A DNA stretch of 63,959 bases, counting the filler, from Neolecta irregularis DAH-3 (Eukaryota), in the NCBI GenBank assembly GCA_001929475.1. It is 10 parts of 10 records of this genome, joined end to end, with 100 filler letters (N's around TTAATTAATTAA, not from the genome) between each part and the next. Parts side by side here need not be neighbours in the genome. Positions count along the whole stretch, not along the records: positions 1 to 20,082 come from LXFE01000853.1; 9 more parts are not named here. The stretch is one strand, 5' to 3'. Positions 1 to 15,054 of this stretch are shown here, in pieces. Numbering within the stretch: the first letter of the stretch is position 1; each line of letters starts with the position of its first letter. The notes beneath the pieces were generated by a model. That model searched no databases. It saw only the letters and a program-made list of their open reading frames with translations, and was not told the origin of the DNA. The position numbers and the translations under genes are program-made.

Positions 1-567
1 AATGTGTTCCACCGCACAATATCGCAGTAGGTCATCTAACATTATCATCCTCATTCACATTCACATTCACATGTCAAGATAATTGTGTGAGTATTATTCT
101 TGTAGACGTCTCTGTTTTGTTTCTCTAGGAAATCAAACAAAATATAAGTCCGGAAGTCCGAAAACCATATTCGGAATTGATGACGACATGATTTACACCA
201 TTTCCAAGTATTCATCCAGAAAAATTACACCAAGATATAATTATTATTGTTGTAATGATCTTCTTAACCGTGATAATCAGAGTCATGACGAGAGAATTAG
301 TCATTGCTGGTCAAAGCTATAATATTTAGCTCGACCTGAAGATCTCAAAATGGAATCAATAATGTATCTCACTAAATTATCTTACATAGCCCGACAAGAT
401 CGAAAAAGAAAGTCATTTGATCATATGAAGACTGATATCGCTGTCGACAGCTATCTTGCAGCTTGAGGGTTTACAGTATTGAATAGAAATATGTTTCTTC
501 AGTGTCAAGAGATCTACATTTAGAGCCCAGAGGGGCAAAATATGGGGGTTACACAGTACAAAATGAT

Positions 568-2364
568 TCAACGGCCAGATTTGAGGAAAAGACTATAGAC
601 TTTATTCGATGTTTCTTCAATGTGTGGAAAGCCAAGCTTCCGGAGAAAGTCGTCAAAGGTTGTGTTATCAACAGCTGGAACCTGAATAGCTACAAGGACT
701 TTTCCAACATCTAATGAGTTAGTATATCCCTGTACAGCAACTTACCAGATCCATGATTTCTATAATGAAAAAGAGAGATATTCCAGTCAGTTTTCAAGCC
801 TGCTAAAAACTTAGACAAAGCACCGGGTCTTTCTGGAAATTCTAAATATATCAGTAATTTTACAAAACAACGATAATACCGAATCTGAATAGTCTTTCAT
901 TATCGACTTGTGCTTTACCGCCAGACAGGTATCGTATATGATCTTTTACCATCTCGTCACCACTGATATCAGTTGCAACAAAACCTTCTTTGCCAAACTC
1001 CCTGCGAACCTTCTCAATGTCCTCCCAATTTGTGATCTGGAACCCAATCAAAACCACAGCTCTCGCCTTGTCAGAATATCGATAAGAAAATTCGGTAACA
1101 GCCCGTGGATAAATCACACTGGTCAATCGCACAAACGTCCCTGGAGTTTCTGGAATGACAACGCTCATCAATACCTCGCGTTGTTCACCAATCTCTGCTC
1201 GTTCTGCAACAAACCGTAAGCGATCAAAGTTCATGTTTGCGCCTGAAAGGATTGCACAATAAGAAGTTTGAGAAGTTGGGGGATTCAATGTCAGATATTT
1301 CTTAAGTCCAGCCACTGATAAAGCGCCCGCAGGCTCAACAATACTTCTCGTATCTGTTCCGTAATTATTATCTATATAACAGCTGGAAATACCTTCAAAA
1401 ACATCCTTGATAGCAGCGCAAATCTCATCTGTGGAAACAAGAACCATCTCATCGACATATTTTGAACATAATCTAAAAGTCTCGGTGCCAACAACACGAA
1501 CAGCAGCGCCATCAGCAAACAATCCCACTTCGTTTAATCTTGTAATCTCTCTCTCTTCTAATGATCTTGTCATCGCATCTGCATCAAAAGTTTCGACGCC
1601 AATTATCTTGATATGTGGAGCAATTCTCTTGAGATAAGTTGCAACGCCAGCGATTAAACCACCACCACCAACGCAACAAAAGACGATTTCAAGTTTGTCA
1701 AGGTTACATTGTCGAAGGATTTCCATGGCAATCGTTCCTTGACCGGCTATAACGTATGGATCGTCGTAAGGAGGTATATCTGTTAATCCATGTTTTAGTG
1801 ATAATCGAAGACATTCTTCTTTCGCCTGATCGAAATCATCGCCGTAAAGAACGACTTTACTTCCCATTCGCGTTACATTCAAGTGTTTGATGCTCGGCGT
1901 GACGACTGGCATTACGATTGTAGAAGGAATTTTCAAACGTTGAGCAGAATAAGCAACTCCTTGAGCATGGTTCCCTCAGAATGTCAGGCTTGAATACAAC
2001 TATACTGAATACCGGCAGAACATGCGATAATTCCCTTCCAGCAGTCTTCTTTGGGTAAATGTGCAATTTTGTTATACGCTCCCCGGATCTTAAAACTAAA
2101 GACTGGTTGAAGATCTTCTCTTTTTAACAACACTTGTGCACCAAGTCTTGATGAGAGGTTTGTAGCAGGTGTTAAAGGCGTCTCTTCAATTATATCGTAA
2201 ACTTTTGAAGTGAGTATTAAACGAATATAATCGGGTGTTCCATCTGAAAGAAGAAAAGACGAAGCTATATCAGGGTATAAATTTGAATCCGGATCTGTTG
2301 ATGATCTTCGAGAATTCAATTGTTGGTTTTCCTCTGTGCAATCTGAGTTTTCATTTAATGACAT
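568..2364 (-). CDS. ILV1: Threonine dehydratase (threonine ammonia-lyase), spliced
   Basis: PLP motif [26 protein letters not shown] across an intron, GGGGL loop, [18 protein letters not shown]-terminal ACT-like repeats ([18 protein letters not shown]); stop TGA at 570-568. Confidence 0.96.
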
Positions 2365-2513
2365 TTTTGTCTATTGCAATGATCTGATCTGATGTTGGAT
2401 TTAATGGTTATCGCAATTTGCCGCAAATATCCCGTGATTCGCCGCTGATCTTCTTCCAACCTACTGGCAAATCTCAATCTAGTCAAGATAATACATAACC
2501 ACCTTTTGCAATA

Positions 2514-3652
2514 ATGGAAAGGTTACAAAGACTGTTTGGTTCCGGTGTTGGGAGTATGGGATTAGGCCAGACTTCGCAGGTGGCCGGAATTGTATAATCG
2601 GGTTGAATTATCAATGATGACGAATCCAGGATCAACCAATAGTCGATAACTCTGAATGTGTATACATATCGTCATTGGCATTATTGAAAATGCTGAAACA
2701 TGGCCGAGCAGTAGTTTTGTTGCTGTAACATGAATTGATCGACCAGGGTGTGCCAATGGAAGTTATGGGACTGATGTTGGGCGAGTTTATCGATGAATAT
2801 ACAGTGCGGTATATCCCATTCTTTGTTTTCTGCAGCTAATGCATTCAAGTGTAGTCGATGTGTTTGCAATGCCGCAGTCTGGAACTGGGGTATCGGTGGA
2901 AGCTGTAGATCCTGTATTCCAGCAGAAAATGATGGAGATGTTGAAACAGACAGGGAGGTATTAATTTCCTCACGTATTATCGGTTGATTTTTATCAGACC
3001 TGAAATGGTAGTCGGGTGGTATCATTCGCATCCAGGATTCGGCTGTTGGTTGAGCAGTGTCGATACGAATACGCAACAGTCATTCGAACAATTAAATCCG
3101 CGTGCTGTTGCTGTTGTTATTGATCCTATTCAGTCCGTCAAGGGGAAGGTTTTCACCTCCTTCTGGTATGCGTTTTGACTTTAGGTTGTCATTGATGCAT
3201 TCCGTCTGATCAATCCTTCTACAGCTATGATGGGCCAGGAACCTCGGCAAACGACGTCAAATATTGGACATCTCAATAAACCGTCTATCCAGGCTCTCAT
3301 CCATGGTCTGAATCGTCAATACTACTCTATCCGCATTGATTATCGCAAGAGCGAGCTTGAAGAGAATATGTTGTTGAATCTCCACAAAAACACCTGGACA
3401 CATGGTCTAACACTCGGAGACTTTGATCTTCATAATAAAGAGAATCAGAAATCTATGGAACAAATGGCTAAGTTGGCCGAAGGGTACACTAAACAAGTCA
3501 AGGAAGAATCTGATTTGACGCCCGAACAACTCAAAACTCAGCATGTGGGAAAGCAGAATCACAAAAGACATCTCGAAGAAAGCGTTGAGAAAGTCATGGG
3601 TGACAATATCAGTACTATGCTTAGTTCCATCATTGATAAAGTCTCGTTCTAA
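2514..3652 (+). CDS. RPN11: 26S proteasome lid deubiquitinase Rpn11 (MPN/JAMM)
   Basis: MERLQRL start; [32 protein letters not shown] motif [19 protein letters not shown]; several short introns. Confidence 0.98.
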
Positions 3653-3730
3653 GTCGAATTCTTCGAGTCCTGTTCTTCTATGTCCTGCTCATTGTCTCGT
3701 TCCTAATCCAAGTTATCTGAATAATTCCTA

Positions 3731-4160
3731 CTATGCAGTTTCAAGTTTCTCCAAAGCTGCTTCTCTCCTCTTTTCCTTTTGGTCCATTTCATCCAATTTT
3801 TTGAGCCATTCTTGCTGAAACCAATCAATATATCAAGAGACATGATCCCACCTGCCGAACACGCCTTTGATCACTGTCATCATCCTGTCGTTGGGAACTG
3901 CTTCCTTTCTTGCTGTAGTAAAGACTTCCACCAATAAGTGCAACCACGGTTGCTCCCTGAGCAGCTACTCGTAGTCTAAACATATAGTTCATCATCAATT
4001 TGTTTCCTTTTCTTCCTGCGATCGCAGCTCCGATTAAAGCACCGCAAGTTATTAAACATCCGAGTGGGACTAATGGCTGGCGCTTGCTCTCGTAAACTAT
4101 TTTTGACCATCCGCTCAAAGGTTTTTCAGGATCTGGAGCAGACGAAAATTGGCTCGACAT
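3731..4160 (-). CDS. RCF1: Respiratory supercomplex factor 1 (HIG1 domain)
   Basis: QPLVPLGCLIT...MFRLRVAAQGATVVAL; second exon QEWLKKLDEMDQK; stop at 3733-3731. Confidence 0.9.
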
Positions 4161-4240
4161 AGCAATATATCGGTGTATAGATTGTTGAATTTAAAGATCG
4201 ATGACGAAAATCCCAACCTCCAATATTCAATTGGCGATCT

Positions 4241-7200
4241 ATGGATCTCGGATTCAGCAGCGCACAAGAGGCAATTGAATCGCTAAAGAGATACCAGTTT
4301 TCGGTTCTATTGAAAAACGATATCTCAACTGAAGAAATTGGAATTATCAACCAGAAAGTGCGTTGGTAGCCTGAATCCGACATGAGCTAAATAGTAGGTG
4401 TCATTGTTTCAGGAACAGCCGCAACTCCTTGATCCATATCTCGAGGAGCTTTTAAATCCATTATCATCACCACTTGTTGAGGCAATCTGTCGACGAACAT
4501 TGAATAATCGCGACCACCAACTGTTTTCATTACTATACACATTTACCAAAGTTCGTGGTTACAAGACCATAAGTAAATATCAGGAGATATGTCAATTTTC
4601 TGACTAGAAGTCAGGTTTTTGCCACACGATGTACACCTTTTAGAACCCTTTCTTGATTGCCTACTCGCCCAAGATGTACTTGACTTTGAGCTGTGGATGA
4701 CTCGTTACATAATGCTGCTATGGCTATCGCTTATCATTATGACGCCATTTGACCTACAACTCATTGAAAGCACTGAAAAGAAGCTCGTGGATCAGATACT
4801 AAATATCGGAAAGCCGTATCTGCAGTCTAGCGGGAAAGAAAGAGAAGGTGCTGCAGTACTAATCGCGAGATTGCTTGGTCGAAAAGATACATGCGGTGAA
4901 CTCGGAGGATATATTGAATGGTGTTATGAAACATGGAATGCAGATAATTCTGACGTATTTCTGGTAGCATGAGTCCTGAAAAGCTGAACTGATTGAGAGA
5001 AAACAGGTATTCTCAACAGTCTTTGCGAAATCCACGAAAAGGGCGATCGGAAATATGTTCAAAATATCCAACCGCAAATGCGTGAAATCATGGCACGGGT
5101 TGATTCTGATGACCTTGTCAAGAACAATATCCTTGTTCGTAAGCTTCGAGTAAAGCTCGTTTGCAGGATTGGACTGTCTATACTGAAACCACGAACTGCT
5201 AGGTGGAGATATACTCAGAAAAATCGATCATTGTTGAAGAACCTGGGGCAAGCTGTAACAGATGAAGAACAACTTGATGAAGAATATTTTGAGATTGATG
5301 GCAAGATTGAAGAGATTGTGGGATATTTACTGGATGCATTAAAAGATAAGGTAATCCGCCTCCACTTATCTTTGTTGAAATACAGGACACAATTGTTCGA
5401 TGGTCTGCTGCCAAAGGAATTGCTCGAATCACAACACGTCTTCCAAAGGACTTTGCTGATCAGGTTGTATCGGCTTTACTGGACCTATTTGCCGAAAACA
5501 ACGGGAAGCAAAGTATAGCTTCGACATCAGATGCAACATGGCATGGATCATGTCTAGCTGTAGCTGAGCTCTGTCGAAATGGCCTCATCTTGCCCCCGCG
5601 TATTCCAGATTTTCTGCCATATCTTCAAGTGGTAAAATCACATGTACTTCATATACTTTACTTATTAAATAGGCACTGCTCTTCGATATTCGTCGCGGTG
5701 CGCATTCAATTGGTTCTCACGTTCGCGATGCTGCTTGCTACGTTATCTGGTCTCTCGTCCGGACATATCCAGTTGAAATTCTTTCGCCTTTTACCCATTT
5801 TCTTACATCCAATCTTATCATCGTATCCTGCTTTGACCGTGAAATCAATGTTCGAAGGGCGGCTAGTGCTGCTTATCAAGAAGGGACTGGTCGCCAAGGC
5901 AATTTTCCCGAGGGAATCGCAATTATCGGCATTATGGACTACTTTGCAGTGGGCACCAGGAAAAGTGCATTTTCAGTCGGTATGGAAATCGCCACGAGAG
6001 AGGAGTATAAAAAGGACATTATAAAACACCTTCAAGAGAGAGTAATCCGACATTGGGACCGAGATATGAGAGAATTAGGGGCAGAATGTTTTGGAAAACT
6101 GTCAATCTTCGATGTTCAATCTGCGAAGAAGATATTGCTAGAAATGGTTTATTGCTATGGTTTGATACTCTACTCACCTGTAGATTTCAAATACTGAGGT
6201 TATGGATTCAACTCGACTTCATGGAGTCATTCTATCAATCTCACACATAATCGATCACTTTCCAGAAACCAAAATGGAAGAATCGCTACAGTTATATCTG
6301 CCCGGTATTATAGGCCGTCTACCTGAGCGTATATGGAGATCAAGCGATGCAGATATTTTAAATGAAGCAACTTGTCAATTGATCGTATCATTGTGCTCAA
6401 AACCTCTCAAGCTGGTATGTGAACCGCTTCTCAACAGAATCAAGGCAGCTTTTATAAGTTCAAGTATTTCGGTCCACAAAAAAGCATGTCAAGCTACAAT
6501 GACAGTATTCACTACGTTTCAGATTCCAGACGCTATCGACGATTTTGTCAAGCGGATTGATTCAAAGGCATCCATAACATCGAGGAGAGGTTTCACCAAG
6601 GCTCTCGGCGCGATTTGCTTTCTAAATTACGAGGCGAAGCTTGAAGGCGTTTTGTTCGCGTTACAACGCAGTATTGATGAATTGGTATGCGCCTGGTGAT
6701 CTAGGGATTTCTTCTCATGAAGGTTACGTACGACACCGATACTCGAGCGAACGCAATTTCTGCAATTGACTCCATCTTTCATAATTCCTTTGTCTTTCTA
6801 AAGAATGGTAGAGTTCATTCAAGTAGTCATTTTCTAAAGCCTAGCTCTAGCCGCTTCATCATTCCAGTCCATATTAAGATCAGTATTAAGAGGCCTTGAA
6901 GACTATACGACAGATTCTCGTGGTGATATTGGTTCGATTGTCCGGCAGGCATCAATTTGTACTCTCACTACTTGTCTCAGACTATCTATGGGAACATCAT
7001 GGTTATCAGACGACTTGGCTCAATCCATCTACTCTGGGATTCTCAAGCAGAGTGTCGAGAAAATTGATCGAGTAAGACAACTTGCTAGCGAGAAGTTCAT
7101 AGAGATTTTGAAAATGGATGAACTCGTATTTAAACCACGAGATCGGGAGCTTTTCGGCCAACTCTTGCAAATCGAGTGCGTGCTCTCTCACTCCCTTTAT

Positions 7201-8144
7201 TGACCTCATCATAGCAATTCTGTGGGCTTTCCTCAAGACTTTTGGTCATCTAGCGAATTCTTTCTGGCTATGCTCAAATCCCTTCAAGTCCCGAATTATC
7301 GTATCTCGATACTCTCGGGGTTTGTGACCAGCGCAGGCGCAGGCAGCGAATCTCTTGTACGAACAAATGCTCTAACAAGAATCTCATTGTTAACTCTCTT
7401 TAGTTACGTGTGACAAGCACCGCTTTAATCAGCTTTACCAGTCAACTTTCTCTGACTTCCAATTGTCATATACTTACACTCTTGGAATTTCTTGAATCAT
7501 TAATTCAAATGATTACGGAAAACTTTGAGACTGACCGAATCATGATTCCTGCACTCGTGGTAATCGGAAATTTATTCGAATTACAGATTTTGCAGAAGGT
7601 TGACGGACACTACAAGTACCTAGTCCTGTTTTAATTCCGGTTTTACAAATATCAGTTTTGGCCACTTGTTTGATCTCATCCATCAAGCAACTTTGAAGAG
7701 TCGAAATGTGTCTAAACTTGCAGCCTCAATTCGCGTGTAAATTCCTTTGAAATTGTGCACACCAAGCTGATCATCGGGTAGATATTCTGGCCTCGCGACA
7801 CTTCACAAAGACAAAGCAGGCTATAACGCCATTTTGAAACTAACTAATTTACTACTACATCCGTTTCCGAGGGTATAACGGGACAAATATCCAGACTCTA
7901 ACTATCTTAGATTCGAAGCTTGGCTGCAGATAATCTTTTTGTGTATACAAGTTCTCAAAATGTGATCAGTCAGCATCTAGTAGAAGAATGTGAAACTGTG
8001 CTGTTGGAGTGTGATTGGTAGCGTCCATCCATATCCACGCATCGCTCTAAATTGATTAGGTCGACCAATATCAAAGACTTGAAGACTCAGGTGGTCGTTC
8101 TACGACCACTCCTCTTAGAAATATTTCGGGGTGCACATGACTAG
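4241..8144 (+). CDS. Tubulin-folding cofactor D (TBCD/Alp1/Cin1), ~14 introns
   Basis: [106 protein letters not shown]. Confidence 0.93.
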
Positions 8145-8314
8145 CAATGGGAGATATTCGGCATCGTAAGTTGCCAGCTGGCTAATTCCGGCTCATATTA
8201 CTAGCCGCATGTACACTATACCATAAACGTGTCATGGAACAGCATGTTACAAGTGTACGACTCTTCTTTATATAAACCCGTCTCCCATCTTCCTTTCTCC
8301 CCTGTTCTCTTCCA

Positions 8315-9413
8315 ATGTCCTGCGGCACCATATTCAAAACTCTCACCAAAAGATTCATATGTCTTCGGCGCAGAAAGACCAAAGATCCTTGCTGCGAAAC
8401 CATTGCCATAACGACCGTCGACTCTTCGACGCAAACCCCACCGCCCCACGAACCTCCTAAACATAACATCTTTTGGCTTCCTCGAGAATTGCTCTTGAAT
8501 ATCGCCAATCGGCTTAGTCCTGCCGACATCATCAGATTGTCTTGGATGAACAAAAGGATGTATCGAATAATTCATAGACCCGCGCTGTGGAAGGCACGTA
8601 TCGAGAGGGAATTTGGCCCAAAAAGCCACGAATTACTCGAGCCAGATGCGACCGCTACTCAGTACGTCTCGGCTTACCGGAAGCTGTGTAAAAGACACTG
8701 GTTCTGACGATATTGACATGACAGCCCAACCCTTTGTTACATCTTGTGCCGACTGGGAATATGCCTGGCTACAATCTGGTTATTGGGAAATCAACGCCAA
8801 CGAAAACTCAAAATTTCAAAAGACAGCAGATCTCAGTAAAACATTTGTCTGGTGGCTTCATGGCCACAAGACTCTTCTTGTGCAGCCTGGCATATACAAG
8901 ATCACTTGGGCATTACAACTTCAGATAGGTGCGGTTTCGCGATCCATTCTTGATGCCGTTAGTTTGAACGTTGTCTCACAGAATGCTCCCAGCGGCCAGA
9001 TTGATGCTGCCTACAGGATACTGTTTGGTAGCATTCGAAGTCAAATTCCTCTCGATCTTCCTGATACATTCCATGAATTTGAAATGCCAGGATATATTCA
9101 CATTCCTTTCGCCGATTCTCCGGATAGAAAGGATTGGTGTCGAGTCAAGTTTGAGATTCGAGATACTGAAGTATACTCTGATTTTCAATGAAAATTATAA
9201 CAATCTTAGAGTCAACGACCCAAGAGCGGCATTAATCTCGACTATGTTAAGCTCACGCCCATTGATTCCATAAATTCTTCTTCCAACATTCTCAACATCA
9301 TCCCTTATTCGACAAACGAGTCTACTACATCTACATCAGAGCTCGCCAGAAGTCTTACCATGAAGGCGGAGCTGCAGGCAGTCATTCCTCAAACTTCGGT
9401 TCCTTGTACATGA
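8315..9413 (+). CDS. F-box protein with C-terminal PP2/Nictaba-like lectin domain (paralog 1)
   Basis: F-box LPRELLLNIANRLSPADIIRLSWMNKRM; introns 8688-8724 and 9171-9209; AWLQSGYW...SKF..TADL..VWWLHG...PGIYKITW...VKFEIRD...KSGINLDYVKLTP; TATATAAA at ~8269. Confidence 0.8.
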
Positions 9414-10449
9414 TTTTTCACTTCGCGCCACATTTATGATGATAATGCTATAGTGGGTTCTAAATATCTATAGATGGATCTAACTATTCCGCCGGGGGAC
9501 CTTCATGGATGTATTAAGGTATTTAAGGTTTATCATTGCAAAGGAGTTATGTTTGGAGTGACGAGGCATGTTTAAGAATCACGCAGGTGGATGATAGATC
9601 ATTAGAATGAATTGCCATGTTAGAGTATTGAACGAAACGATGAGCTGTGACACTACTATGTTTCAGTCATTAACATAGCATGATTTTGTAACAGGATTAG
9701 CACCTTAGCCTAGATAATTATTGACAAGGCAATAATGCATTGTTCAAGTACCTTCACAACTTGATAAAAACCACAACCTTGATAACTAGTTACTAAAGTA
9801 TGAGGTGCACTTAGAACAACCGGATAGATTCGGTTCGAATAATAATATTGACACTACGTTGTATCTTTTCCAAGATCTCACAACTGAAAGGTCAGTACTA
9901 TGGGGATTCGAAGTCATCCCACTGTAATAAGATCCACCTCACCGTTGGAGGTAGCTGAAGGAACTGTCATGGGAAGCCGAAGCTTCATGACCTGGTTTAT
10001 TCGGGGCTATCACAGGAATCGCCCGCCACCTAGTACGGAATAGGGAGGCGAATAGGCAACGACGGCAGTGTGCAGATGGCCTGATTTTGTATATAAGTAG
10101 CGCCGAGCCTGATTAGCAGATTAGACGATATCTGATATTCAGCATAGGTACTTTAACTCCAAGTACCTACATCGGAATACCCAACTAAAGTCCCGCCTAG
10201 CATCAAAATAGAGCTCGAGTGCTGACAAGTACCATTTGTGTCTCGCGAATGGTTTTCAACCACAGTCGATGTAAGAATACGACGTAATATTTCTGCCACA
10301 CAACCATATCGAAATGGATGATAAACCTCATACTTGGCGACTTGTAAATATTGTGAAACTTTCAAGTTCTTGCTATTTCAGCAAATTCATCATTCCCGAA
10401 ACGATTAGGGAGAGCCGAATTAACCTTTCCGGTTTTAGAATTTGCCACT

Positions 10450-11409
10450 ATGCCTCCCTCCAAAATTGAAACGTTACCGACCGAGTTGCTTGCGGAAATT
10501 GTTCTTTATCTCGTTCTCCCAGATATAATTAACTTCACCCTTACCTCGAAAACAATCTGCCGAATTGTACACAGCCCGCCGACTTGGCTGCTCAAGATAC
10601 ATCATGATTTTGGACATTCAGAATCGGCTGAATTGTCTCTAGAGTCCCCAGCCAAGGATTGGGCTCTTCAGTATGAGCGCCTGCGTATATTGCTTGTATC
10701 ACTATCATATGCTGAACCAGTCAGTTCAACCATTGTATACATCTATCGCAGAGTGGCAGTTCGCTTGGATCGACAATCGATATTGGAGGGTAACAGATAC
10801 TCCACAGAGCCCTTTTGGAAAAACTCTGAATCTGGACAACCGTATTGTTTGGTGGGTTTCCGGGCAGAAAACCTTTCCAGTTCCACCTGGTCAATACAAA
10901 GTGACATGGGGTCTTCAAGTTTCTCCTCGAGGAATGGCTCAAAGCCCCAATCTCTTATCGGTTGGCATTCGACAAGTCAAATTCCGAGTCAAATGCCTCG
11001 ATTCTCAGGAATTTGTATCCTCGCAGGTGGAAGGATCATTGAGTGATATCAATGGATCGGAAATTAGAGACTGGACTGAAGTGTCGTTCAAAGGTGTACT
11101 TGATGTGCCGTTTGCCAATGTTACAACAAAAGAGCTGAGTAATGTTCAGTTTGAAGTCAGAGGCATTGCACGTACTCCTATTTTCATCATTTCTAAGCTT
11201 TATAGGAGGGTACAATCAAGATTGGACTTAATCTTGACTTTGTCAAACTTACTCGTATTTTGCATTGTGACGAAGAACCGGAACAAACTACTCTGCAGCC
11301 ATATGAATTTCAAAATGGAGCGCCAAAACTGAGTACCGGCTTAACGAATTCTAAACACATACAGCAATCCACAGGGATATGGTATCGCTTAGCAAGAATA
11401 TTCATGTAA
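10450..11409 (+). CDS. F-box protein with C-terminal PP2/Nictaba-like lectin domain (paralog 2)
   Basis: F-box LPTELLAEIVLYLVLPDIINFTLTSK; introns 10685-10724 and 11168-11205 (GC-AG) at positions equivalent to paralog 1; AWIDNRYW...SPF...VWWVSG...PGQYKVTW...DWTEV...VQFEVR...KIGLNLDFVKLT. Confidence 0.8.
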
Positions 11410-11626
11410 AGACGCCTTTCTATAGCGATTGTATTATTTTCCTGCATGTTGGCGTAATTGGATTGATTGCCCAAGCAACTCTAGCTCAAAGTTGCTTGGC
11501 ACAAGTTATGTATTAATGTGGCTACACGAAGATCTAGCTCCAACATTAATCAAATGAAACTGTAAGTACCGCACAATTCTGATACACAGCATGCAATATA
11601 TATATGCCCCAAATGAAACCAAAAGT

Positions 11627-14164
11627 TTATTCGCCTCGCAATAAATAAGCTGCCAGGGCCTCTTGATCTTCTAAAGAATTCAAATCACCAACTTGAAATG
11701 CTTTATTCTTTTTTGGCATATGGTGATCATCGAACCAATTGACCTTTCGTTTTTTGGTCTTCTCTTCATCGACTAGCACAGGGGGTGATTTGTCTTCATC
11801 ATTAGATACAGGTTGAACACCTTCATCCGAGCTCTCTTCTCGTTCACGAGCCTTTCTTCGTAAAATCTTCTCCCGATGTTTTTCTTTTGAATGTTGTTTA
11901 TCAAGTAAATCCTTCTCTTCCATATCTCCAGACTGAATTTTCAAATATTCTAATTTCTGACGTTCGGGTAGACCAGCCTTCAAAAAGAATTGTTCGTCTT
12001 GGAGTTCGTAGATGGGATGTGCTTCTCCTTCATCATCAAATACCAGCCTTGTGCCCTTTGGAGCGTTTTTTGCAATCGCCTTTTTGGAGAGGGCTTGTTG
12101 GGCCTTGCGTTTTGAGGGCGGCTTTCTCATCTGGTTTATTAGTTCCATACCGTGAACAAGTTTCTGTACTTCTGAAGGTTCTCTAATTTCATCTACAAGA
12201 TCATGATCTGTCCGTTTCACAGCCATGAAATCGTCATCAACATCTGCGTCAATGGTATCCTTGTTTTCTTTTATTAATTTCCCGTAATGCTCAGACAGAA
12301 TATCCTGATTGCGCCTTTCAAACATCCGATCATATTTCGTACGAATTTTAGCTTTATCGGTTCTTCGTTCTCTGCGAGACTGTGCAGAAGCTTCAAATTC
12401 TGGGGTATTTGTTGATGAATCATCTCCATCTGAACCAGATGATATTTCCGCGGCTGTTAATCTTTTGGTCTGAGTGTTGTTTTTGAGCGCTTTGGCTTGA
12501 CAAGTCTGTAAATATGAGCATCGACAGAGCGATAAAACTTACGCTTCCGAATTTAATTTTGGGCGCTCCTGCAAGTCCTAAACTCGCTGCATACTCTTCG
12601 AGAAGAAGATCTTGCATATTAAAGGTCTCTCTGTCCTTTTTCAAATAAATGCTTCGTATATACGATACAAAGGCCTTTTGTCCGAGATACTTGATCTCTG
12701 GATCCTTGAAACACATTGCCTGAAGTTGTTCCTTCACACTCAATCTTTTACTGCTCTTAATCGTAATCTTCTCGATTGGAACCTTTTTAGTGCATAAGCG
12801 TTCAACAAAACTGGATTCTTCGCCCGGACTCAACATCAACAAAGCCCGTCCGTTTCGTTCATATCTTGCAGTCCGTCCAACCCGATGAATATAAGTATCC
12901 GCATCCTCAGGAGCGTCTACCTGAACAACCCAATCCACTGCAGGAAAATCGAGACCCCGAGCAACAATGTCTGTTGAAAATAGACAAACCTGTTTTGAGG
13001 AAGAAAATCGAGCGGTAATTTCAGCTCTAGCGGTTTGCTTTTGCTTTCCGTGAAGATGGAGTAGCGGAATCCCGGGATGCATTCTTTTGAATGTCTCGTA
13101 TGCAAAGCGAACCTTTTATAATTAATCGATATCAAAATGGAAAATTGCCTGTTTACAGGACGAGAAGAAAACCAGAATCTTGCTCTTGAGATGAGTTTTG
13201 AGAAAAGCGAATAAAGTGTCTAATTTATTGGGCAAAGGAACAACGACATAGTGCTGTTGTAAGGTTTCAGGCGTGCTACTTTGTGACGCTTCATGAACAG
13301 CAACATATTCCGGTTCTTTCAAACTCAATCTTGCAAGATCACCAACACTTTTAGTTTGAGTAGCACTAAACAAAAGCGTTTGTCGATTGGGTGGGAGATT
13401 CTCGATAATCCCATCAATTGTTTTTCGAAATCCCATATCAAGAATTCTGTCTGCTTCGTCAAGAACGAGGATTTGCAAGTTGTTTGCTTCAAAACCAGCA
13501 GTCTGGTCCATATGTTGCAACATTCTCCCGGGTGTACAAACGAGAATATTCATCTTTGATAAACGATCTCGTTCAGTTTGTAAATCTTTACCGCCAATCA
13601 CTAATCCTGCTGAAAAGTCGTGCTCGCGGCCTACCTTTCGGAGAACTTGGAATATCTGAACTGCCTGAACCATATAAGCTCTCTAATTTCAAAACCAAAC
13701 AAACAAGTTCTCTTGTTGGAGAAATAATTAATGCTCCAAGACCATCGTGTTGGTTCCATTTTCGAACAAGAAGACCTTCAAGAACCGGAATGATAAAGGC
13801 CAATGTCTTTCCACTGCCAGTTCTAGCTGCCCCCAACACATCCTTTCCCTTTAATGCAAGAGGTAAAGCTTTTCGCTGGATATCGGCAAGGGTAACAAAA
13901 TGCGACTGTTTCAGGCCTGATTTGTCAAATTATATTCTGCCGCAAAGCGAAAATACCTTGGGCTGTCTCTTTGGATAAAGGCAACTCGCTGAATTTCGTA
14001 ATCTCTTTGCTCAAATCCTGTTTCAAATAAGCTGATATTCTGATTAAACCAGATCTTGCAAATTCTTCAATCCGCTGTTTCAGCCGGACTAATTCTGATT
14101 CCTCGCTTTGTCTTTTCTGCTGTCTTGCTTCTTTGGATCTTCCAACCTTGATGCGCCCGGGCAT
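11627..14164 (-). CDS. DBP4: DEAD-box RNA helicase Dbp4/Hca4 (DDX10)
   Basis: [67 protein letters not shown]; Dbp4-type tail ([19 protein letters not shown]). Confidence 0.96.
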
Positions 14165-14261
14165 TTAGATAAATCCTTTCTATTTCGGGAATAAAGTTGG
14201 GATTGTGTAAAAGAATAAAAATTTCGGGTGTCGATAATTGAGAATAATGATAAACCACCAC

Positions 14262-15054
14262 ATGCCAGATTTTCTGACCGAGAGTGTAAACGAACATCTC
14301 GACCCATTTATAAAAAGACTGAAGGCCTTTCTAGAAAAAGAAGTAGAATCTGGTCTTTTGAAACAGGTTCAAGAGAGAATTAGAGAAAGCCTCGATGTTT
14401 TACGGCAGGCATTGGATCGGTTCAGGCGAGTTTATCGGAAATAAATATTCTAAGACCACAGCTCCAAGTCAATCGCATTATCATTCAACGGAGGAAAAGA
14501 CTGTGAAGTTCTTCTTTTTCTATACCTGTATGTGCTTTTTCCGACAGATCAGCCAATTCCGACCCTTTTTATAACTCCCCAGCATTCGTTTCCTCAAGTA
14601 GAAAAATTCGTAAACGAATGTTCGGCAAAGTACCATTTGCATCTTTCCAGAAAGCCTGTTCCAATGAAACAAGCATTTGCCGAATATCTCAAAGAACACC
14701 GGATCATCAAAGCAGTTCTAGTCGGAACCAGACGTAACGATCCATTTGCGCAAGACCTGAAATATATTCAACCAACAGACCATGGCTGGCCGCCTTGTGT
14801 GAGAATTCACCCAATCATAGATTGGCAGTACGCCGAGATCTGGGAGGTAAATTTTCATATACAAGCGTCATATTCAGACATAGTTTCTAAGGTTTTTCGA
14901 CATCCCGTATTGTTCGCTCTACGACCAAGGATATACATCCCTGGGCGGTACAACAAATACAATACCGAATCCCTCACTCCAGACCATTGATGGAAATTAT
15001 CTTCCTGCATATCATTTGAAAGACCAATCTCAAGAGCGGCTGGGACGCGACTAG
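14262..15054 (+). CDS. FAD1: FAD synthetase (PAPS-reductase family)
   Basis: SFNGGKDC, VGTRRNDP, PTDHGWP..RIHPIIDW, YCSLYDQGYTSLGG, ERLGR*. Confidence 0.93.

Follow-up and report, generated by a model that had tools for sequence, protein, structure and literature searches.

What do two neighbouring genes that join an F-box to a plant-type lectin domain encode in Neolecta irregularis DAH-3, and where did they come from? The pair lies at positions 8315-11409 of the window, which is the whole stretch of 63,959 nucleotides (nt) of N. irregularis DAH-3 DNA that was analysed and along which all coordinates are counted. From our analysis, both genes encode an N-terminal F-box followed by a C-terminal domain of the PP2/Nictaba type, and the pair is, as far as its sequences tell, a set of divergent tandem duplicates of an old, vertically inherited fungal F-box-PP2 family. 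We compared two public assemblies (here X1 and X2) over 8000-12000, and the gene models are as follows:

8315..9413, plus strand: gene 1, F-box and PP2/Nictaba-type protein of 340 amino acids (aa); exons 8315-8687, 8725-9170 and 9210-9413 (stop-free splice, assembly X2, homologous protein P0002)
8688..8724, plus strand: gene 1 intron 1, 37 nt, GT-AG, phase 1 (splice analysis, X2)
9171..9209, plus strand: gene 1 intron 2, 39 nt, GT-AG, phase 0 (splice analysis, X2)
8166..8204, plus strand: intron in the 5' untranslated region of gene 1, 39 nt, GT-AG, on the same X2 contig as the coding exons (X2)
10450..11409, plus strand: gene 2, F-box and PP2/Nictaba-type protein of 293 aa; exons 10450-10684, 10725-11167 and 11206-11409 (stop-free splice, assembly X2, profile)
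10685..10724, plus strand: gene 2 intron 1, 40 nt, GT-AG, phase 1 (splice analysis, X2)
11168..11205, plus strand: gene 2 intron 2, 38 nt, GC-AG, phase 0, missed by the NCBI model (splice analysis, X2)

The initial annotation had proposed two adjacent same-strand paralogs with introns at equivalent positions, and its splice coordinates proved correct, as the joined frames are stop-free and X2 skips precisely all four coding introns (three GT..AG and one GC..AG), which are retained in X1. Because the introns are lost at canonical sites, we infer that X2 is an assembly of spliced RNA, despite its kind having been guessed as DNA. Intron phases match as well as positions, with phase 1 after the F-box/linker and phase 0 before the last strand, and the two proteins align with a score of 360, where 200 shuffles gave no more than 51. 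X2 record 9 carries the three exons of gene 1 and record 10 the three of gene 2, which puts the F-box and the second domain of each gene together on a single contig and not on separate transcripts. The same joined product is found in P0002, whose identity to gene 1 is 88% across 274 columns (157/166 residues in the PP2 part, 31/50 and 32/50 at the termini). No protein identical to gene 1 occurred among three protein-search result sets, P0002 being the closest, and gene 1 may be unannotated in databases. Its N-terminal extension of 50 residues, 31 of which are kept in P0002, has many basic residues and Cys and might carry a membrane or lipid-modification signal. Exon 2 of gene 2 is 100% identical to the NCBI model NEOLI_002783, but that model (235 aa) takes a donor GT 4 nt downstream of the true one and loses the last strand. 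In a profile of 18 homologs without Neolecta rows, the GC-AG form scored 182.9 bits and the NCBI form 152.5 bits. The alternative GT donors at 11156 and 11172 were rejected, as conserved residues would be lost or the sequence put out of frame, and 11168 is the site seen in X2.

The N-terminal F-box claimed for each protein was recovered in both, with scores above the Pfam gathering cut-offs (24.3 bits for PF12937 and 20.5 bits for PF00646):

8471..8596, plus strand: gene 1 F-box, aa 53-94 (PF12937 33.7 bits, PF00646 26.7 bits; both pass the cut-off)
10465..10590, plus strand: gene 2 F-box, aa 6-47 (PF00646 28.9-29.4 bits, PF12937 24.4 bits)

The second domain is of the PP2/Nictaba type, and in both genes it extends across intron 2:

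8725..9260, plus strand: gene 1 PP2/Nictaba-type domain, about aa 125-290, intron 2 inside; pocket-equivalent residues W139, Y144, V166, W167 and W168, with P277 at the inferred Trp151 position (Pfam, profile, fold of the ortholog P0002)
10725..11256, plus strand: gene 2 PP2/Nictaba-type domain, intron 2 inside; pocket-equivalent residues W93, Y98, V120, W121 and W122 (Pfam PP2 E 2.5e-4, 21.5 bits; ESM Atlas)

Scored on partial or proxy sequences, Pfam PP2 (PF14299, IPR025886) gave 13.5 and 21.5 bits for the exon frames (the latter for gene 2), 21.4 bits for the NCBI model and 22.6 bits for P0002, where model positions 19-148 of 148 were matched. Family profiles matched Nictaba (8AD2) in the PDB with E 0.0035 (positions 107-253 to chain 8-156) and 0.0065; a profile built from two sequences found no PP2 structure there, just two unrelated matches (E 0.28 and 0.41), whereas the wider profiles did find Nictaba. 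The fold was judged from an AlphaFold model of P0002 (15-row alignment, predicted local distance difference test (pLDDT) 78), and a single-sequence model of the window protein P0001 (pLDDT 40) was not used. The best of 48,161 chains for the P0002 model was the phloem lectin PP2 7vs6 (Z 12.9, root-mean-square deviation (rmsd) 2.7, 141 aligned residues), and Nictaba 8ad2 was matched at Z 10.8. In ESM Atlas, where clusters of at least 50 members were searched, the bare gene 2 domain was nearest to PP2 clusters of Streptophyta (0.90-0.92). Residues 45-292 of P0002 were nearest to two F-box+PP2 clusters (0.98 and 0.96) in which Rotifera were commonest, and a further PP2 cluster (0.95) was of Mucoromycota, a phylum read from one member. 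As a separate observation, these clusters place the fusion in Rotifera too, where it would have been retained or acquired in an animal group.

Foldseek ranked Fbs1 first as a whole-chain match (E 8e-7), Cus17 second and Nictaba third, and Fbs2 was also matched. Membership of the Fbs/FBA family (FBXO2/6/27) was nonetheless rejected: the FBA family was not found at E <= 10 in the window exon frames or at E <= 0.1 in the homolog set, while PP2 was listed, and at the level of the domain fold PP2 (Z 12.9) is the better match than Fbs2 (Z 9.4, rmsd 11.0).

For the sugar pocket, we relied on the crystal structure of Nictaba, in which, according to the accessible text, the site is formed by Thr14, Trp15, Tyr21, Val39, Ala40, Trp41, Asp148, Lys149 and Trp151; Ala40, Trp41 and Asp148 touch the sugar through backbone atoms, and Trp41 stacks on the sugar in addition to giving a backbone hydrogen bond (PMC11632377). 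Four of these nine residues (Trp15, Tyr21, Val39 and Trp41) are kept in both paralogs. The initial annotation had cited the W-x6-W pair of Nictaba as implicated in glycan binding. Both paralogs have W-x5-W, a loop one residue shorter than that of Nictaba, and the sugar contacts named by the structure are Trp15 and Trp41 and not the second Trp of the pair (PMC11632377). We then surveyed the pocket in 41 rows (the two window proteins and 39 homologs, leaving aside short fragments, P0059, P0001, P0016 and near-copies within clusters). The equivalents of Val39, Trp41 and Trp22 are invariant in 41/41 rows; the Tyr21 position is Y in 31, F in nine and H in one; the Trp15 position is W in 15 of the 16 rows outside Mortierellaceae; and the Trp151 position is W in 24/25 Mortierellaceae rows. 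For the Asp148/Lys149 equivalents the alignment is unreliable, and the conserved Lys of the family falls after the Trp151 position. The core of the pocket is thus present, as far as the aligned residues indicate, and sugar specificity is not readable from them.

Is this architecture a peculiarity of Neolecta? A HMMER profile scan of 1.84 billion representative proteins, with both exon-2 sequences as query, gave 19 matches, 18 of which were looked up. All ten matches with an organism name are fungal (Neolecta, Saitoella coloradoensis, three Lipomyces, Kockiozyma, two Limtongia, Basidiobolus and Lobosporangium); in 12/19 the F-box and PP2 are both recognised at E <= 0.1, and 12/19 pass the Pfam PP2 cut-off. 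P0016, a SpaA-repeat protein matched over 19 positions, was dropped as spurious. An Acaulospora homolog was added by a full-length alignment search (three matches among 8000 scored). A wider search gave 35 matches, of which the 26 named ones all belong to genera that we take to be Mortierellaceae, a sample biased by a query that included two fragments of that type. The F-box + PP2 fusion is therefore also present in Saitoella, Lipomycetaceae, Mortierellaceae and Basidiobolus. These protein searches brought up no plant protein, and none from Pezizomycotina, Basidiomycota, Schizosaccharomyces or Saccharomycetaceae, although the reach of the searches was limited and absence is not implied. A word-index search with gene 2 exon 2 matched its own record alone (1/14 candidates). 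Searches that need exact patterns, and are weak for that reason, found a relative in 1/122 pattern matches of metagenome contigs, 0/16 of viral contigs and 0/20 of prokaryote genomes.

The fungal proteins (Saitoella BFZ65046, Lipomyces ODQ71156, Basidiobolus KAK9711518, Lobosporangium ORZ29043 and other Mortierellaceae) are true homologs of the same architecture, 21-31% identical to P0002, and bear database names such as 'hypothetical' or 'F-box domain-containing'; in Mortierellaceae, unlike Neolecta, His occupies the Trp15 position while Trp is retained at the Trp151 position. A hydrophobic N-terminal segment was predicted in 4/6 Lipomycetaceae homologs and a C-terminal one in the Lobosporangium homolog (P0005, P0006, P0007, P0009 and P0019), which suggests membrane-anchored forms in both groups. 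Neither Neolecta paralog has a hydrophobic signal-like segment outside the F-box, and for this reason the Neolecta proteins are probably nucleocytoplasmic. The plant-type architecture had been presented as an oddity in a fungus; the same fusion occurs in several fungi, and Nictaba domains in fungi were already reported in 2019, as the available text of that survey states (PMC6362431). Since many fungal homologs are also Pfam-labelled already, the surprise is modest. It had also been said that widespread, vertically inherited fusions across ascomycetes would remove the novelty. Among early-diverging fungi and ascomycetes that branch early, the fusions are indeed broadly distributed and vertically inherited, but none was found in Pezizomycotina or Basidiomycota within the limited reach noted above. 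We found no description of a fungal F-box-PP2 family in the literature, where subscription papers, figures and supplements lay outside our reach and may list such architectures.

The descent of the pair was examined with a tree of 24 rows (the two window proteins and 22 homologs, including eight Mortierellaceae rows; fungal and homolog rows only), rooted on Basidiobolus. An ascomycete clade of 12 rows (Neolecta, Saitoella, Lipomycetaceae and three further proteins) has support of 100/99, as does the Mortierellaceae clade; the two paralogs are sisters (96/85), and two further proteins stand next to them (97/94). The neighbourhood tells the same story, with the following gene directly downstream of gene 2:

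11627..13920, minus strand: DEAD-box helicase gene (DBP4-type, the name being inferred), tail-to-tail with the F-box gene both here and in L001 (tblastn, Pfam DEAD)

L001 is a metagenome contig with one F-box-PP2 gene, 28-31% identical to the Neolecta domains and likewise tail-to-tail with a DEAD-box helicase; the two helicases are 67-68% identical over the core (L001:8893-11034, tblastn), and both loci have, within 10 kb, a gene with a PAPS-reductase domain (presumably of the FAD synthetase type) and DBP10. The coding GC content of the pair (0.44-0.46) lies inside the 0.40-0.47 of seven neighbouring stretches, and GC at third codon positions of gene 1 (0.47) is just over the 0.34-0.43 of the neighbours. 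Tree, L001 synteny and GC together indicate that a distant common ancestor already had the gene at this locus and that it was later duplicated in the Neolecta lineage. Of the two origins that the initial annotation had left side by side, the old retained module is thus favoured by the fungal homologs, the tree and the synteny, and acquisition from a plant by this lineage is not. On L001 itself (1-14916), we observed compact genes in long uninterrupted frames, including TSC1-like and DnaJ-like genes (names from sequence appearance); the contig is apparently fungal, groups near Neolecta in the tree, and apparently comes from an intron-poor relative of an intron-rich lineage.

A close known architecture is that of the plant F-box/Nictaba proteins (e.g., Arabidopsis At2g02360), which share the N-terminal F-box and the C-terminal PP2/Nictaba domain. 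The solved plant domains are, however, 13-17% identical to those of Neolecta, which have W-x5-W, V-W-W in place of V-A-W and no Trp151 equivalent, and plants have dozens of such paralogs where two were found here (PMC6389600, accessible text). Nictaba (8AD2/8QMG) and Cucumis Cus17/PP2 (7VS6, 7YAQ) have the jelly-roll fold, the N-terminal Trp/Tyr loop and the V-x-W strand in common with Neolecta, but are stand-alone dimeric lectins without an F-box, and Thr14, Ala40 and Trp151 are changed in Neolecta. Vertebrate Fbs1, Fbs2 and Fbs3 (FBXO2, FBXO6 and FBXO27) likewise have an F-box, a helical linker and a beta-sandwich, and are the source of the functional model proposed below; yet their domain is FBA and not PP2, the whole-chain superposition is poor (rmsd 11-12), their mode of sugar recognition is unlike that of Nictaba, and their genes are described as restricted to vertebrates in the part of the 2019 review available to us (PMC6389600). 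In that same part, sugar-recognising F-box proteins are described for mammals and plants alone, and a single plant F-box/Nictaba protein had been characterised by 2019 (PMC6389600).

What, then, would these proteins do? In the reading that we find best, the F-box of each would dock on Skp1 and make the protein a substrate receptor of a Skp1-cullin-F-box (SCF) ubiquitin ligase; a shallow aromatic pocket of the jelly-roll domain would hold a glycan containing N-acetylglucosamine (GlcNAc), be it the chitobiose core of N-glycans or chito-oligomers; and cytosol-exposed glycoproteins, dislocated from the endoplasmic reticulum or set free from damaged endomembranes, would be ubiquitinated. Lectin-type F-box proteins of mammals and plants are the precedent (PMC6389600, accessible text). 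Skp1 binding is very likely from the motif; glycan binding is somewhat probable from the predicted fold and the four kept pocket residues; and an SCF adaptor that does both appears to us evenly balanced between right and wrong. What the substrates would be is suggested by a weak analogy with Fbs1-3. Membrane-bound Fbs3 is reported to act on ruptured lysosomes in the accessible text of the review (PMC6389600), and the terminal hydrophobic segments of the Lipomycetaceae and Lobosporangium proteins would agree with a membrane-associated version of the same function, whereas the Neolecta proteins have none outside the F-box. Several results weigh against the glycan-binding adaptor. The PP2/Nictaba assignment of the initial annotation holds by profile (Nictaba E 0.0035) and by fold (PP2 as best match), but in neither paralog does the Pfam PP2 score reach the 25-bit cut-off. 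An enzyme, hinokiresinol synthase 8jmr, comes second among the fold matches (Z 12.2, less than 1 below the first), and Z 10-12 is reached by many unrelated carbohydrate-binding modules, with 7zvo (Z 12.0) also within 1 of the best; we found no paper joining hinokiresinol synthase with phloem protein. In both paralogs Thr14 is replaced by Ala and Ala40 by Trp, and Pro or Ile stands at the Trp151 position as mapped, by inference, through the Cus17 alignment. The Trp15 position is His in 25/25 Mortierellaceae rows, and the Trp151 position is W in just 1/12 rows of the ascomycete clade, so that no one pocket is conserved family-wide. Even At2g02360, the nearest F-box/Nictaba protein in Arabidopsis, binds other glycans than Nictaba does, namely N-acetyllactosamine (LacNAc) glycans and not Man3GlcNAc2, by the accessible text of PMC6389600; LacNAc binding of Arabidopsis F-box/Nictaba is also given in that of PMC8358183. 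As for descent, the inner branches of the ascomycete clade are weak (Lipomycetaceae form one group in 26% of bootstrap trees, and Taphrinomycotina have 48/65), several branches are long, and the tree holds no plant rows.

The lost Trp151 equivalent, the bulky Trp at Ala40, the shorter W-x5-W loop, the His of Mortierellaceae and the enzyme 8jmr with its same fold would all suit a true SCF adaptor of an old fungal family whose PP2 domain holds a protein surface, a peptide degron or a small molecule, the aromatic residues being structural or serving that other ligand. The Foldseek matches also include FBG3 (3wso), which belongs to the mammalian Fbs family and is not known to bind glycans. The invariance of the Trp41 and Val39 equivalents across the survey speaks against such a ligand, and Ala40 and Asp148 contact the sugar through their backbone, so a changed side chain need not matter; we consider a non-glycan ligand possible, though less likely than a glycan. 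That the proteins bind glycans outside a working SCF ligase, as a Skp1-only dimer, a chaperone or a free cytosolic lectin, has a parallel in inner-ear Fbs1, which is described as a Skp1 heterodimer without SCF in the accessible text of PMC6389600. Some family members also have a weak F-box (P0004 at 15.4 bits, P0007 at 13.5 bits) or none (P0033). Both Neolecta F-boxes pass the Pfam cut-off, however, and most of the profile matches show both domains, which makes this explanation unlikely. Least probable, in our view, is horizontal transfer from a plant, whether as a recent event in Neolecta or as a very early one in a fungal ancestor. In its favour are the fungal distribution, which appears patchy, the Streptophyta clusters nearest to the bare gene 2 domain, and the fact that F-box/Nictaba is common to all Viridiplantae, whereas the same 2019 survey by Van Holle and Van Damme, in its available text, finds the Nictaba domain largely confined to Archaeplastida and fungi and favours differential loss over transfer (PMC6362431). 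A recent plant origin is not supported: none of the ten named profile matches is from a plant, the Pfam PP2 scores of Neolecta (21-23 bits) are below those of early-diverging fungi (29-54 bits), the ascomycete clade is firm, the neighbours are conserved in L001, and the coding GC content falls within the range of the neighbouring stretches. Nearly all the weight of this explanation therefore falls on an ancient transfer, which may have occurred, given a tree made of fungal and homolog rows.

Apart from the two genes, the interval between them (9778-10232) carries X2 spliced joints on the minus strand, with GT..AG introns at 10197-10232 and at 10132-10166 or 10132-10170 (two donors) and less clear skips near 9884-9919 and 9778-9814. 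The longest ATG frame of the joined transcript is 36 aa, and Rfam gave no match in 7000-12000; it is probably a spliced non-coding transcript. Near its start, a 32-nt stretch with a TATA-like motif (10086-10117) is matched by extra contigs in X1 and X2 that then continue with other sequence, and is possibly a small repeat or the remnant of a long terminal repeat. The X2 contig with gene 1 extends upstream of 8059 with a loose end and over 2 kb of additional sequence, which would reflect either one more splice on the upstream side or a merge with the transcript of the tubulin-cofactor-D gene next to it.

In practical terms, the analysis provides a corrected NEOLI_002783 model with its GC-AG intron and a domain assignment for two proteins that fall under the Pfam cut-off. 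Conceivably, though we offer this as a doubtful possibility, the F-box-PP2 fusion is an ancient eukaryotic reader of glycan degrons and not a plant invention, one that early-diverging fungi, early-branching ascomycetes and rotifers have retained and that the model yeasts and moulds have lost. It would then be an overlooked fungal SCF ligase that reads cytosol-exposed N-glycans or chito-oligomers, membrane-tethered in several lineages like vertebrate Fbs3, its job in Neolecta being split between two paralogs with different pockets. The family is relevant to the question of whether the fusion is older than the plant-fungus split. Cultivable fungi (Lipomyces starkeyi, Mortierella alpina) have orthologs in few copies, which would make deletion and substrate trapping simpler than with the dozens of plant paralogs. 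In essence, this fungal family of plant-type architecture extends the candidates for sugar-recognising F-box proteins to a third kingdom, and if its members are SCF adaptors that bind GlcNAc-containing glycans, they may be a means by which fungi mark sugar-coated proteins for destruction.

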